Source: an uncultured Pseudomonadales bacterium
GTDB lineage: Bacteria; Pseudomonadota; Gammaproteobacteria; Pseudomonadales; Azotimanducaceae
Reading direction: 5' to 3'
DNA length: 64,000 nt
Assembly: GCA_964651595.1 (NCBI GenBank)
Contig: CAZYYJ010000015.1
Coordinates: forward strand, 12,304 to 76,303
Shown: positions 8,578 through 14,628 of the stretch, in pieces
Layout: each line of letters begins with the position of its first letter
How positions within the stretch are numbered: position 1 is the first letter of the stretch
Notes under the pieces: generated by a model
Databases searched by the model: none
Told to the model about the DNA's origin: nothing
What the model saw: only the letters and a program-made list of their open reading frames with translations
Program-made: the position numbers and the translations under genes

Positions 8578-11500
8578 ATGCGCAAAGCCACACAATGGGT
8601 CAAACCCTTCTCGTACACGCTGATTGCGCTGGTGCTGCCGGCGTTTGCCTATTTCATCGTGTTCATCGAGGTGCGCGAGGAAGCGCTCATTGAGCGCATC
8701 CACACGCAACTCGCCATGATTGCCACCCGCACCGAGAGTCGCCTCAATCAGGCGTTCCGCGTGGTGAAGAACGCTGACGCCCGGTACGACAAACGCAACA
8801 CCGTATATGCCCAGGGGGAGTTTGGCCTGGTCAACGCGGACTGTGCGGTCGATCGGCAAAACGAGACAGACCTGAAGGCGCGGCTCGACGGCATCGACGC
8901 CACGCTGGGTGAGGTGTGCATCAACGTTGATCTCGGCCTCGCCTACGAGGTCAGCGAATTTGGCGCAACGTTCTTCCACAATGCCGAAGGCACCGAGACA
9001 GATTCGCGGGAAGTGGTGACATCGGAGCAGCTCGACGGCCCCGAATACGAATTCCTGCAAACGTCCTACAAGCCGTCCGGACGCGCCGTACGCAGAGCGA
9101 GTGCGCCGGCAGCACAACTCGTGGGCTCGGTAGATGTTGCCGGGCGCTTTCACGACCTGCTGTTGATTTACGACGAGAAGACCGTCTACCAGAAGTTTCC
9201 CGAAAAGGGTCGGGTGGTGGACGTGGACGCCATTGATCCGGGTGCGGATGACGCGGAGGACGGCGATTCGGATGCTTCGCTGCAGCCCGTTGCGGATGCG
9301 CTGGACGGCATGCGCGTGAGTTACCAGGGCCGGACGTTTCTCGTGTTCGAGCAACCGATTGCGTTCAGCTTCACCGACAAGCAGTGGCGCATGCTGGGCC
9401 TCGTGGACGAGGCGGTGCTGAACGCGGAGAAGATGCGCTTCGAACGGGGCACGATGAGCCTGATTGTGCTCGCCGCAATCACCCTGCTTCTGTTGATTCC
9501 CTTTGCCAAAGTCTGGTTTCTGGGGCGCTACGGTTCCCTGACGCAGTCGGACATGCTGGCGCTGGTGGTGTGCGGCTTCAGCCTGGTTGCCCTTCTGACG
9601 CTCGTGCTGCTGCACTGGTGGACCGCTGAGCGGCTGCTGCACGCGTGGGATGCGCGCCTGGAGGCCGTGGCCACGGAAATGGCGGAGGATGTGGAAACCG
9701 AGATCCGCGGTGCCGTCACCCAGTTGGACGCAGCCATCCTGCCGATGCGCCAGGCGTTCGAGGCGACACTGGTCTACGGGGACAAGGCAAACTGGAGCAG
9801 CCGTTCCGGTTGTGACCGGCTCGCTAACTTCGAGGACAAGGAGGGGCTGGGCACCTTGGCCAGTAACCTTGCGGCCGGCGGCGCTGACTACGATGCCCGC
9901 GGTCTGACCATTGCGTATCCGCATCTGCGCATGGTGTACCTCATGGACCAGAAGGGCTGTCAGATCGTCAAATGGACCACCTACGACCGGTGGACGGCAC
10001 CGGGGCGGTTTGCAGATCGCGATTACTACCAGCGCCCGCGCCGTGACGGCCGGGTTGCACCGGCGTTGTACAGCATGGCCGACGTCCCCGACTTTTTTAT
10101 CGGTACCATCCAGTCGCGCACCACGGGAGACAAATCTGTCGTTTACAGCCTGCCGGTGGCAGACGTCTGCCCGCCCGAAGAAGCGGAAGGGGTCGAGGCG
10201 GCGTCGTGTGTCGCGGTGCTTTCCGCCACGGGTCTGCGCACCCTGGAGGCAGCCATGCCGAGTGGCTTCGGCTTTGCGCTCATAGACGGGCGGGGTGACA
10301 TTCTCTTTCACAGTGACGGCGGTACGACCGCGGAAACCAATCTGCGTGACGAGCTGGGCAATGGCATTCTACTGACCACGGCCATGCGCCAGGCTACGCC
10401 CCGGCCGGGGGCGGATTTCATCACCACCTACCGCGGGGTGACGCAGCGCTTCGAGGTGGTGCCGCTCACGGGCCTCAAAGGACCGAACTGGCACCTGGTG
10501 GTGTTTGCCGATCAGAACGCCGTGATACTGCCGTTGCTGGAAACTGCGGGCATCACCATTGTGTTGTGGCTGTTCGGCTTCGGCATCGCGTTGACCCTCT
10601 TCATGGGTTGGCTGCGGCGACGCCCCGTCGAAGCCAGGCGTAAGGGAGACGCAGACACCGCAGACGCGGCATCGGTCTCGCTGGCCGTGGTGATCGTCGC
10701 CGGCATGCTCTACCTCATTGCCATGCTCGCTTTTTCCCTCGACGAGCTGCTCGCGCTGGTGCTGGGCGGCTTATCCACGCTGCTGCTGATGGCTTGCGCG
10801 GTTCGCCACCTGCACAGCCACCTGCAGGACAAGACGCACAACGCGCGGCCCTTTGTGCTAGCGGGCATAGGCCTGTTACTGGGCGCGTCGATTCTGCCGG
10901 TGCACCTGCTGCATCAATACGTGGCGCGCGAAGCCGTGGACTCACTCACGAAGCTGCAGATCGACGAGCACTGGGTGGGGCAGGGGCGTCAGGCTCAGCT
11001 CAAGCGGGAGTGGCAGCGTCGGGTAGCGCTGCCCGAGGAAGCCAGCTATCGCGACGAGGCGCTCACGTTCTGGCCGACCTATTCGCTGTTCGGCGACAAG
11101 CTGGTGGCTGGAAGTGCGGCAGCGGATGCTCCGCTGGCTGCCCCGGACCGGAACCTGTTGGCGTTCATACCGGATTATTCCGCGGTGGCAGCCACCCAGC
11201 ATGCGATGTATCGCGTGCCCGATACGCGCTTTGCCGATGTCTGTCTCGAGGGTGCTACGAGCGTTTGCGGTGTCGGGGATCTGCGCCGGCAGATTCTGCG
11301 GGAGCGGGTGGAGAACTTTGCGTTCTACTTCTGGTTCTGGGTGGTAACGCTGCTGCTGGTGGGCGCGGTGTTGCTGACCTTGTGGTCGCTGCTGGTGCGC
11401 ACCCTGGGGATACGTGCCGAAGATTTTCTGCGCATCAGCAACTTCAGCCCGCCCGGTGAGAACGCGGGCGCGCGGGACATCATCTATGGGCTTGGAGAGT

Positions 11501-12426
11501 TCACCAAGCCGAAGTTTCTATCTGCCATTGCGGAAAGCCGGCGCGAGTGGGTTGACCTGCGCCTCGTTCCAGGCACAACGCCGGTGCAGAACGTGGCCGC
11601 CGATCCCGACAGAGATGTGGTGGTGCTGGATCACTTCGATGATTTTCTGATTGATCCGGCGGTGCTGAATCATCGGGTGATGTTGCTGGAACATCTCGTG
11701 CGCGATAAGCAGCGCTCAGTGATTCTTCTGCTCAGCGTGGATCCGCTCAACTTCGTGACATCCACTTACAGCGCCGCTGACAACGCGGCTCTGATCTCAC
11801 GCTTCGCATCGCTGCTGTCGCGCTTCCGGGCCTCTTACTACCAGGAATCGCGGCCACCGGAGCCCGGGGACAGCATCGGGGAAATCACGCTGCACGCCGA
11901 GTGTTTTCATCCCAATCTCGCAAAGATCCGCGAGAGTCTGCTGGCGCACGATGAGCAGCTGGGTCCTGACGAGATCATTCAGCAGGTTGGTCATCGAGCC
12001 AATGCCATTTATCAACATATGTGGGGGCTGTGCACGCGCGTGGAGAAGCTCACGCTCATAGAGCTCGCGCACGGAAACGTGGTTAACCCCAACAACTGGG
12101 ATGCAGCGCGGCGGTTGAAGCAGCGCGGCTACCTGCGCCGCGATCCCTTTCACCGGATCTTCAACGAGAGCTTCACGCGTTTCATTCTGCGTATGGAGCG
12201 CATAGAAGACGTGGATTCCTGGCGGGCCGAGAACCCGGGCATGTGGGCCAGTATCCGGCTGCCGCTGGTGGTGGCAGCTCTCGGCGGCATCGTCTTTCTC
12301 GGCGTGACGCAGCCGGCCTTTTTCAACAGCGCTTTTGCCTTCGCCGCGGCGGGTACAGCCGGGTTGCCATTTCTCACCAGCCTGCTGGTCTCTAGATTCA
12401 ACCGGTCTTCAGCGGACAAAGCCTGA
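8578..12426 (+). CDS. large (1282 aa) hypothetical multi-pass membrane protein
   Basis: Long ORF with several clear TM helices and plausible codon usage. No Walker, His-kinase or other catalytic motif recognised. The 650-aa antisense ORF looks like antisense noise. Confidence 0.6.
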   Translation: MRKATQWVKPFSYTLIALVLPAFAYFIVFIEVREEALIERIHTQLAMIATRTESRLNQAFRVVKNADARYDKRNTVYAQGEFGLVNADCAVDRQNETDLKARLDGIDATLGEVCINVDLGLAYEVSEFGATFFHNAEGTETDSREVVTSEQLDGPEYEFLQTSYKPSGRAVRRASAPAAQLVGSVDVAGRFHDLLLIYDEKTVYQKFPEKGRVVDVDAIDPGADDAEDGDSDASLQPVADALDGMRVSYQGRTFLVFEQPIAFSFTDKQWRMLGLVDEAVLNAEKMRFERGTMSLIVLAAITLLLLIPFAKVWFLGRYGSLTQSDMLALVVCGFSLVALLTLVLLHWWTAERLLHAWDARLEAVATEMAEDVETEIRGAVTQLDAAILPMRQAFEATLVYGDKANWSSRSGCDRLANFEDKEGLGTLASNLAAGGADYDARGLTIAYPHLRMVYLMDQKGCQIVKWTTYDRWTAPGRFADRDYYQRPRRDGRVAPALYSMADVPDFFIGTIQSRTTGDKSVVYSLPVADVCPPEEAEGVEAASCVAVLSATGLRTLEAAMPSGFGFALIDGRGDILFHSDGGTTAETNLRDELGNGILLTTAMRQATPRPGADFITTYRGVTQRFEVVPLTGLKGPNWHLVVFADQNAVILPLLETAGITIVLWLFGFGIALTLFMGWLRRRPVEARRKGDADTADAASVSLAVVIVAGMLYLIAMLAFSLDELLALVLGGLSTLLLMACAVRHLHSHLQDKTHNARPFVLAGIGLLLGASILPVHLLHQYVAREAVDSLTKLQIDEHWVGQGRQAQLKREWQRRVALPEEASYRDEALTFWPTYSLFGDKLVAGSAAADAPLAAPDRNLLAFIPDYSAVAATQHAMYRVPDTRFADVCLEGATSVCGVGDLRRQILRERVENFAFYFWFWVVTLLLVGAVLLTLWSLLVRTLGIRAEDFLRISNFSPPGENAGARDIIYGLGEFTKPKFLSAIAESRREWVDLRLVPGTTPVQNVAADPDRDVVVLDHFDDFLIDPAVLNHRVMLLEHLVRDKQRSVILLLSVDPLNFVTSTYSAADNAALISRFASLLSRFRASYYQESRPPEPGDSIGEITLHAECFHPNLAKIRESLLAHDEQLGPDEIIQQVGHRANAIYQHMWGLCTRVEKLTLIELAHGNVVNPNNWDAARRLKQRGYLRRDPFHRIFNESFTRFILRMERIEDVDSWRAENPGMWASIRLPLVVAALGGIVFLGVTQPAFFNSAFAFAAAGTAGLPFLTSLLVSRFNRSSADKA

Positions 12427-12458: not shown

Positions 12459-13421
12459 TCAGGCGTGCGCCCGCAGCGTGTGCAGGGTGACCTCGGGGGG
12501 GCAGTTGATGCGGGCATCCACGAGGGAGGCGCCAGCCCCCGGAGAGGTGTAGCCGGACATGGCGCCATGCGTCCACGGGCCGCGACCGAGGCGCCGCGGA
12601 ACGTGCGCCTCGAGCACAACGGGGAAACCGCCGGGAAGACAGATCTGTCCGCCGTGGGTGTGACCGCAGAGGAACAGGTCGGCGCCCGCGTGCGCGGCCT
12701 CGCGGTAGACCTCCGGCGTGTGTGACAGAAACAGACAGAAGCCATCCCGGGGGACACTTTCCAGCGACTTCTGGATGTTGTGGGTTCTGAAGAAATGCGC
12801 ATCGTCGATGCCGGCCACGTGGATGGTAGCGCCCTGGTGGCCGAAAGCGCGATGTTCGTTCATCAGCACGTCAATGCCGAGGGCTTCCAGGGGTGGCACC
12901 AGCGTGACGCTGTCGTGATTGCCCAGCACGGCGTAGACGGGCTCGGTGAGGTGGTTGCGCAGCGCGGCCATGCCGCGTAGAACCTTGTCCTGGTTGCCGT
13001 GTGATCTGAAACGATAGTCGCCTGTCATCACGCAAAGGTCGTAGGTGAGATCGCGGGTGCAACTGATCAGGGCCTCGGCGATGCACTCGCTCATGTCGAT
13101 GTGCAGATCCGAGAGGTGCAGCACGCGCAGGCCATCGCAGTCCATAGGGAGCTTGGGTAGCCGTATCTCGTTGGTGACGACGCGAACGGCGTGGGCGTTG
13201 CGTCGGGCCCGCGCATACATGCCCGACAGCTTGAGTGCGCCGCGAATGAAACCCTGCGCCGAGTACCAGTTCTCCGGATGAAAGAAGCGGGTGCCGCGCA
13301 CGTGCGCTTCGTGCTCAGCTTCCAGACCCAGGCGCTGGCGGGCGTGAACCGCCCCCAGGCGTTGCTCCAGCAGAGCGTGGATGTCTTCCTTGAGAGGTTC
13401 GTCTGCTTGTTGCTCGGCCAT
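12459..13421 (-). CDS. metallophosphoesterase (calcineurin-like phosphoesterase)
   Basis: Motifs LHLSDLH, GDY, GNHD, SHTPE, GHTHGGQ. Start placed at MAEQQADEP rather than the longer upstream extension. Confidence 0.8.
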   Translation of the reverse strand: MAEQQADEPLKEDIHALLEQRLGAVHARQRLGLEAEHEAHVRGTRFFHPENWYSAQGFIRGALKLSGMYARARRNAHAVRVVTNEIRLPKLPMDCDGLRVLHLSDLHIDMSECIAEALISCTRDLTYDLCVMTGDYRFRSHGNQDKVLRGMAALRNHLTEPVYAVLGNHDSVTLVPPLEALGIDVLMNEHRAFGHQGATIHVAGIDDAHFFRTHNIQKSLESVPRDGFCLFLSHTPEVYREAAHAGADLFLCGHTHGGQICLPGGFPVVLEAHVPRRLGRGPWTHGAMSGYTSPGAGASLVDARINCPPEVTLHTLRAHA

Positions 13422-13545
13422 CCCGATCAGTATATCGAATTGGCCTGCCGCCGGTTTGTGGTGTCGCGGCACCGCGTGGGCCGGCTGGCTACACCCATTG
13501 TCCTGACGCATACTGCGGTGGCGACAACAGGGGAGCAGAAAGGCC

Positions 13546-14628
13546 ATGTTCGACTATGCCGACGCGCCGGAAACGTTTGCCGGCGCCATCCGCGAAGACA
13601 TCAAGGCTGCGCACCGGCGCTTCTGGGAACGGCTTGCGCAGCCTGGTTGCTGGTGGAACGGTGCAGAGCGGGTTGCGATCGCCCGTGAATCGCGCAACGC
13701 CCTCGGCGAAGCGGACAGCGATACCGACGGGAGTCTTCCGCCGCGCGCCATCGACGCTGCCCACACGATCATTCTCAATCAGGCGAGCATCAGCCGCGCC
13801 TGGGTGGAAGACAACGCGGCCAACGGATTGTCGAAGGAAGCGTACGTCGAGCTGGTGGGCATTGTCGTTGCTGTGTTCAGCATCGACGAGTTTCACCGTG
13901 CGCTCGGCCTGCCGCTGGAGCCGCTGCCGGTACCCGTTCCGGGTAATCCCTCGGGCTATCGCCCCGCGCATCTCGCCGAGGACATTGGTTTCGTACCGAC
14001 CGTTCCCCCCGATGGTGCCGTGGGCAATGAGGCGGACCTGTGGCAGCAGGGGCGCACTGCCAACGTCGTCCGTGCGTTGACCCTGGTGCCGGATGCGCTG
14101 CGCGATTGGCGCGATCTGGGCGGCGCGCAGTATCTGTCGTTCGAGGCTATGGGAAATTTTGTCGGTTTACCGGATCGCACGCTCAACCGCATGCAGGCGG
14201 AGCTGATTGCCGGTCGGGTGTCGGCGGTGAACGAGTGTTTCTACTGAACCAATGCTCACGCCACGATGCTCCGTGTGAGCGCGCAGACGACCGAGACCGA
14301 GATAGACGTACAGGGCATTGCCGGCGATGCGGCACGTGCCGCGGTAGGCATAGAGTTCGGCACCGAGCTGATGCAGTTCGGGGAAGCCGTGGCGCATCGC
14401 GCGGCCGAGGAGATCACGGCCACACGGCAGGCATTGCTCGATCGGGCCGGGGCGTCGGCGCTGGTCGAAGCAGCGGGCGTTGCCGCCAATTTCCAGCGCA
14501 TGGTGCGCATTGCTGATTCGATCGGCATTCCCGTCGACGACATGACTTCCGAGCTGGGACAGAACATTCGCGCGGAACTCGAGCTCGAGCGCTTCGCCAG
14601 CTCTCAGAACACGCTGGCAGCCACCTAG
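13546..14628 (+). CDS. AhpD/carboxymuconolactone-decarboxylase (CMD)-family protein with in-frame TGA (14245..14247): candidate selenoprotein (alternatively a pseudogene)
   Basis: ORFs 13546..14247 and 14266..14628 are in the same frame, separated only by one TGA. Read-through gives AVNECFY-U-TNAH, matching the CMD/AhpD catalytic motif NGCxYCxxxH with TGA at the second Cys. A hairpin GCTCACGC..GCGTGTGAGC starts 7 nt after the TGA. Confidence 0.55.

Follow-up and report, generated by a model that had tools for sequence, protein, structure and literature searches.

Does an in-frame TGA end a gene, or is it read as an amino acid? The question is raised by a stretch of 64,000 nucleotides (hereafter the window) from an uncultured Pseudomonadales bacterium of the Azotimanducaceae, in which the ORFs 13546..14247 and 14266..14628 lie in a common frame and form one gene broken only by the TGA at 14245..14247. 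The 18 nt between the TGA and the second ORF correspond to six sense codons (ACC AAT GCT CAC GCC ACG). The original prediction had described two same-frame ORFs parted by one TGA, an arrangement confirmed on the sequence, and the read-through translation is as it stated, with ...SAVNECFY[TGA]TNAHATML... at the junction, or more fully ...GRVSAVNECFY-U-TNAHATMLRVSAQ....

Comparison with relatives from other genomes indicates that this TGA almost certainly encodes selenocysteine (Sec, U) in an AhpD-like enzyme. The complete explanation, in which we have high confidence, comprises a single gene for a 360-residue oxidoreductase of the AhpD_rel_CFYUT family, in which the UGA codon would be decoded as U234 under the direction of an RNA element located in the downstream coding region. 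The features concerned are collected in Table 1.

Table 1. Positions of the features discussed, numbered from the first nucleotide of the window except for the paralogue pairs, which are given by locus
Feature	Position	Strand	Remarks
AhpD-like selenoprotein gene	13546..14628	+	360 codons; Sec = codon 234; TAG terminator 14626..14628
In-frame UGA, read as selenocysteine U234 (almost certain)	14245..14247	+	TGA in 87/87 family copies and 83/83 aligned copies; second-Cys position of the AhpD CxxC
Putative catalytic relay: E219 (14200..14202), C231 (14236..14238), Y233, U234, H238 (14257..14259)	14200..14259	+	Spacing as in PA0269 and MtAhpD
Element conserved at the nucleotide level, ACG AUG CUC CGU GUG AGC; putative SECIS core	14263..14280	+	Frozen synonymous sites, codons +6..+11
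Small hairpin: GCUC (14268..14271), loop CGUGU (14272..14276), GAGC (14277..14280); proposed SelB-binding apical stem-loop	14268..14280	+	RNAalifold consensus
Larger, originally predicted hairpin: 8 bp, 11-nt loop	14254..14280	+	Thermodynamically dominant fold in the window sequence; excludes the small hairpin
In-frame deletion site, ~16 residues relative to the family (residues ~53-59 of the selenoprotein)	13702..13722	+	Removes the N-terminal CxxC segment, consensus ALxCxFCxxRKxALSPYxxxGEH
Metallophosphoesterase gene	12462..13511	-	Divergent, upstream of the selenoprotein gene
Paralogue pairs	L018 10733 and 14524; L022 10733 and 12042; L040 10733 and 13208; L050 9384 and 10733; L062 10733 and 15563

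Family membership and previous descriptions

Selenoproteins of this type have been described since 2005. AhpD-like proteins with a CxxU motif were found in Sargasso Sea sequences in 2005 (27 sequences; PMC1088965), and in the GOS data the AhpD-like 1 and AhpD-like 2 families, with 299 and 70 sequences, are among the most abundant selenoprotein families (PMC2398784). Current reviews include them, as does a dedicated database. The original prediction had presented AhpD-like proteins as a known bacterial selenoprotein family, in agreement with the literature since 2005 and with the NCBIfam model NF041238. The marine-metagenome proteins of Zhang, Gladyshev and co-workers resemble the present gene by description, with a CxxU motif in an AhpD/COG2128-type protein and a TGA followed by a coding-region stem-loop; they are abundant in marine samples rich in Gammaproteobacteria, and in those papers the family is defined broadly. 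The family is therefore already known, described and curated, and NCBI holds an equivalog for the exact CFYUT subfamily.

The gene at 13546..14628 is, by its sequence match, a member of that curated family. When U is written as C, the read-through product scores 397 bits against the equivalog NF041238.1 (cut-off 175, E = 8.1e-119), with profile positions 1-357 of 357 aligned to protein residues 15-352. Matched separately, the half-ORFs cover profile positions 1-238 (249.5 bits) and 246-357 (109.1 bits). The model is named 'AhpD_rel_CFYUT, alkylhydroperoxidase-related (seleno)protein', and the motif it spells, C-F-Y-U-T, is present here with a TGA-encoded U (NECFY[TGA]TNAH), as it is in 87 of 87 relatives. 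Likeness to the family thus covers the full-length match and the motif, and extends to the length class and to a probable build of two lobes. The relatives, mostly from Pseudomonadales, OM182, Pseudohongiella and Azotimanducaceae MAGs, share 55-68% identity with the window protein, which differs from them by the lack of the N-terminal CxxC segment (~16 residues), a segment typical of 81 of 83 relatives and not known as family-defining.

The Pfam CMD domain (PF02627) is recognized at residues 203-254, across the TGA, with a marginal pass of 24.7 bits against a gathering threshold of 23; it appears only in the read-through, as neither half-ORF alone matches any Pfam family. The scores for TIGR01926 and TIGR00777 fall under both cut-offs, so the protein is not a member of those subfamilies.

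What goes slightly beyond the catalogue is the map of nucleotide constraint, the doubt over which hairpin is read, the apparent lack of Cys forms, the sestrin-like two-lobe model and the loss of the N-lobe CxxC. The gene leaves the present understanding of selenocysteine decoding as it is, and its main value lies in annotation, since joining the two ORFs restores an antioxidant-type selenoenzyme. The joined gene also marks the source organism as a likely selenium user.

Evidence for decoding of the UGA codon

A scan with one genome per species found 311 relatives, from which 80 loci were fetched for comparison at the DNA level. In tblastn across these 80 loci, homology runs through the TGA (query residues ~2-357). 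The codon at the Sec site is TGA in 87 of 87 copies, and in all 83 aligned copies, from different genomes; TGC, TGT, TAA and TAG never occur. The true terminators of the same 83 genes are mixed (TGA 32, TAG 28, TAA 23). Conservation is undiminished beyond the TGA, the majority-residue fraction being 0.736 for the 232 columns upstream and 0.734 for the 123 columns downstream. Over codons +1..+6, residues are kept in the 83 copies (T 100%, A 90%, H 100%, A 89%) while third positions vary freely, a pattern that marks selection on the protein.

A pseudogene or a sequencing error in this contig, with TGC turned to TGA, would need only a single base change. The chance of this is very close to nil, given that the identical protein sequence is found in two independent metagenome assemblies and that no relative carries TGC or TGT where all have TGA.

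The same data bear on an arrangement of two separate genes, in which translation would truly stop at 14245 and start anew, independently or by coupling, at the ATG at 14266. Gene callers annotate the locus in this way everywhere, and an ATG at codon +7 is kept in 92% of relatives. Nevertheless, the six codons between TGA and ATG, which two genes would leave untranslated, are conserved as protein, the catalytic His sits in the gap between the ORFs, the CMD match and all alignments to PDB entries cross the TGA, and neither TAA nor TAG ever replaces the putative stop in the 83 genomes, although all three terminators are in use there. Two genes are thus very improbable. Taken together, the invariant TGA and the conservation across it leave no room for a pseudogene, a sequencing error or two separate genes.

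The way in which databases present the family requires comment. The best 120 database homologues of the read-through all end at ...N[EQD]C[FY]Y, and the best 120 found with the segment that bridges the Sec site are, without exception, C-terminal halves of ~120 residues. As both sets consist of halves, gene callers evidently split the gene everywhere. The original prediction had set orthologues ending at a conserved stop against a selenoprotein; database orthologues do end there, but as an artefact of gene calling, for homology and the CMD domain run on past it, and the catalytic His lies beyond. No full-length Cys form of the family, which could have served as a control, occurs among the 240 protein matches listed and the 87 genomic copies, and a search for Cys forms with the bridging segment returned only C-terminal halves of Sec forms.

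Selenocysteine, rather than termination, is accordingly the reading retained here. The candidate selenoprotein originally proposed is borne out by a family model matched end to end, an invariant TGA beside varied terminators, undiminished downstream conservation and constraint at the nucleotide level. On this family-level evidence, Sec decoding in these lineages appears very hard to avoid, and we infer Sec insertion in the source organism itself. The immediate context of the codon is also regular: in the region 14242..14248, the codon 5′ of UGA is TAC in 81 of 83 copies and TAT in 2, and the base 3′ of UGA is always A. Beside the downstream element, this may reflect a context constraint around the Sec codon.

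Active site and comparison with AhpD proteins

Proton relays are known from AhpD of M. tuberculosis (Glu118-Cys130-His132-Cys133-His137) and from PA0269 (Glu36-Cys48-Tyr50-Cys51-His55) (PMC3141380). The corresponding residues of the window protein, E-x11-C-x-Y-U-x3-H, have a spacing identical to that of PA0269 and MtAhpD, with Sec in place of the second Cys. E219, C231 and Y233 are invariant in the family, and H at +4 is kept in 83 of 83 copies. Solved structures of AhpD-like proteins (3c1l, 6k40, 2pfx, 2prr and 2oyo) align over residues ~160-330, and the second Cys of their CxxC falls exactly on the TGA (3c1l SSINHCYYCLTAH, 6k40 SGLNRCVYCAVSH), where the original prediction had placed it. Similarity to the AhpD-like proteins of the PDB is weak at the sequence level, with E from 1e-6 to 1e-2. 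The AhpD, PA0269 and TIGR01926 proteins (PDB 1gu9, 2o4d, 3c1l, 6k40, 2pfx, 2prr) are single domains of ~150-200 residues with Cys at both positions, whereas the window protein, at 360 residues, has an additional N-terminal lobe and carries Sec in place of the second Cys.

By analogy with AhpD proteins, U234 would replace the second Cys and form a selenenylsulfide/selenol-thiol redox pair with C231, while E219, Y233 and H238 would supply the proton relay. The enzyme would be an AhpD-like thiol/selenol oxidoreductase, whose substrate may be a peroxide or whose function may be the reduction of a peroxiredoxin partner.

The RNA element downstream of the UGA codon

Codon usage changes abruptly from codon +6 onwards. 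Within 14263..14280, Thr is encoded by ACG in 38 of 40 cases, Leu by CTC in 83 of 83, Arg by CGT in 80 of 83, Val by GTG in 57 of 57 and Ser by AGC in 82 of 83, with the Met codon ATG among them. Codon entropy is 0-0.3 bits in the element, whereas the 103 other conserved four-/six-fold degenerate codons of the gene average 1.86 and never fall below 0.96. This collapse of entropy over codons +6..+11 implies a constraint on the nucleotides themselves of the 18-nt stretch, which lies 16-33 nt 3′ of the UGA, at the expected location of a bacterial SECIS. The invariant element offers a compact, family-specific signature for gene finding, as well as a clean substrate for asking which hairpin SelB reads.

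Two mutually exclusive hairpins can be drawn here. The one described in the original prediction (8 bp with one G-U, a loop of ~11 nt and a start 7 nt after the TGA) is present in the sequence with that geometry, its 5′ arm GCUCACGC at 14254..14261, its loop at 14262..14272 and its 3′ arm GUGUGAGC at 14273..14280. The 3′-arm string 'GCGTGTGAGC' given for it is not literally there, the preceding bases being CC and not GC. The second, smaller hairpin emerges from the RNAalifold consensus of 83 sequences (GCUC-CGUGY-GAGC), in which 331 of 332 cells are paired. It has a conserved stem of 4 bp (5 with a U-G pair), a loop of 5 nt with G2-U3, and a spacing of 24 nt from the UGA. The 3′ arm of the larger hairpin is shared with the small one, and the conserved element overlaps the 3′ arm and the loop of the larger.

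The bSECIS model (PMC13188914) provides a reference for both. It specifies an apical loop of 3-9 nt, a stem of 4-16 bp, 16-37 nt from UGA to loop and an MFE of <= -7.5 kcal/mol, together with a G as the first or second loop base, after which G or U is usual. The small hairpin agrees with the model in loop and stem, in its loop G and in spacing; its energy is -4.5 kcal/mol alone, short of the limit, and -10.0 in the best window context. The larger hairpin departs from the model in three of four respects, namely loop size (11 nt), loop G (the loop starts with CA) and spacing (14 nt), and agrees with it in energy only. Like E. coli-type bSECIS elements, the element of the window occupies a coding-sequence site just 3′ of the UGA and presents a small apical loop with G then U at 24 nt; it differs from them by a 4-bp stem under the energy criterion, no covariation and no Rfam match.

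That the larger hairpin is the functional SECIS of the source organism is a doubtful proposition, which nonetheless deserves consideration. In the window sequence, the MFE and the centroid structure are both this fold, whose pairs have probabilities of 0.88-0.99, against 0.004 for the small hairpin. For the larger hairpin, six of the eight pairs can each form in 72 or more of the 83 relatives, and the C/U variation at position 3 of the His codon always still pairs with G. Its stability is at chance level: the MFE of -12.1 kcal/mol compares with -11.66 (sd 2.3) for 200 dinucleotide shuffles, 80 of which are as stable (z = -0.19), and the hairpin alone is no more than is expected by chance in GC-rich sequence. 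The third pair (15-37), whose 5′ base is a freely varying third position of an Ala codon, can form in only 9 of 83 relatives and is broken in 74, and the fifth (17-35) forms in 57 and is broken in 26. This fold also leaves unexplained the invariance of C14271, a loop base, and of U14274, the partner in the G-U pair, where C would pair better. Finally, its 5′ arm starts so close to the UGA that, on background knowledge, it would fall within the stretch covered by the decoding ribosome. The proposal of this hairpin as a SECIS thus stands as to the site, which is under constraint where a SECIS is expected, and is weakened as to the fold by chance-level stability, two poorly conserved pairs and the departures from the bSECIS model.

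Other tests are neutral. No covariation was found for either hairpin model among the 83 relatives, since the element is invariant, and neither folding energies nor pair probabilities across the family separate the two models. Rfam was searched over the whole window with gathering thresholds and on 14150..14400 with E <= 10; neither search detected a SECIS or other relevant family.

Known ribosome footprints and the function of the E. coli SECIS suggest how the two folds could be related. A ribosome paused on the UGA would unwind the first dozen or so downstream nucleotides; this would melt the 5′ arm of the larger hairpin and leave the shared 3′ arm free to form the small one, whose G-U could then be presented to SelB-GTP-Sec-tRNA(Sec). 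By this analogy it is probable, with some reserve, that the small hairpin and not the larger fold is read after unwinding by the ribosome. Sec decoding would accordingly be directed by the coding-sequence RNA element at 14263..14280, whose most conserved fold is the 4-bp hairpin with its CGUGU loop. As far as the exact fold can be deduced, the conserved core seems better described as the small hairpin GCUC-CGUGU-GAGC.

The N-terminal lobe

Upstream of the AhpD-like region, the N-terminal ~160 residues have no Pfam match. Because Sestrin-2 is built from two AhpD-like lobes in tandem, this part probably forms a second lobe of that kind. P0005, a typical truncated member of 247 aa, was modelled with AF2 (pLDDT 85.3, pTM 0.86); the model is all-helical, and a Foldseek search with it gave no significant match. 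Comparison with Sestrin-2 (PDB 5cuf), made through this model of a truncated relative and not with the window protein, yields 12% identity, an architectural resemblance only. A test for internal duplication by hhalign, N half against C half, was not significant (probability 0.4%); its sole aligned stretch places the N-terminal IAxESRNALxCxFC on the active-site IAGRVSAINECFYU.

Of 83 relatives, 81 carry the N-terminal CxxC; only the window protein and one other copy (L050_0) lack it, through an in-frame deletion of ~16 residues. Its loss could reflect relaxed constraint. On a bolder reading, which we regard as improbable but worth stating, the CFYUT family would be obligately Sec-using and two-lobed in the manner of sestrins, its SECIS would be an unusually small invariant element of 13-18 nt outside the bSECIS energy criterion, and the window copy would be a natural single-centre variant. 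The obligate use of Sec is suggested by the lack of a Cys form among the ~330 relatives examined. If this reading were true, the window copy would show that a CxxU centre works without the N-terminal cysteines.

Selenocysteine machinery and gene neighbourhood

The window contains no tRNA-Sec (only tRNA-Pro and tRNA-Leu) and no SelA, SelB or SelD signatures. A tRNA-Sec scan of 60 related loci found none, and a motif scan for SelA, SelB and SelD in all fetched related loci found none near the gene. The absence of sel genes from the window says nothing about the organism, as the gene has no conserved neighbours and sel genes are unlinked to it in relatives too. The window was also scanned for further pairs of same-frame ORFs parted by a TGA, and no second candidate was convincing.

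These observations are relevant to the idea that the window copy is a fossil, the family being truly selenoproteins and the source organism having lost its Sec machinery, so that a truncated product of 233 residues would be made. The lack of sel genes and tRNA-Sec in the window and the unusual deletion of the N-terminal CxxC would be compatible with such decay. The first point is uninformative for want of linkage in any relative, and the copy itself looks maintained: the 126 codons 3′ of the TGA contain neither frameshifts nor extra stops, identity to the family consensus is 75.4% downstream of the TGA and 76.7% upstream, and the 18-nt element is intact, with no departure from the consensus. 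A fossil is therefore improbable, and a gene in use for selenoprotein synthesis remains the preferred reading.

The selenoprotein gene is monocistronic. Its start lies only ~34 nt from that of the divergent metallophosphoesterase gene (13511..13547), which leaves very little space for two promoters; the longest ORF of the metallophosphoesterase would overlap the selenoprotein start at the palindromic CATG 13545..13548. A scan for promoter and terminator consensus sequences at the gene gave nothing above chance. Convergent downstream genes encode a 2-hydroxyacid dehydrogenase and a gluconolactonase, and an MFS transporter, a Rieske oxygenase and HDOD genes are found further along. Just upstream of the metallophosphoesterase gene, an ORF of 1,282 residues (8578..12426, + strand), starting with ATG and with a coding-like GC3 of ~0.77, has no match in Pfam or NCBIfam. 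Clustering of gene neighbourhoods across 81 loci revealed no recurrent partner, the best real cluster occurring in ~15 loci, and no AhpC or peroxiredoxin partner is conserved beside the gene in these loci.

Annotation and paralogues

Public protein collections present this gene, like hundreds of relatives, as a pair of unnamed ORFs (~247 and ~120 residues). JGI has given a few of the C-terminal halves wrong, unrelated names, such as 'flagellar hook-basal body complex protein FliE' and 'DNA-binding phage protein'.

Five genomes carry two diverged CFYUT paralogues within 5 kb (Table 1), and the TGA and the downstream element are kept in each. Several of the second copies have a lengthened, 6-bp version of the small hairpin (GCGCUC/GAGCGC).
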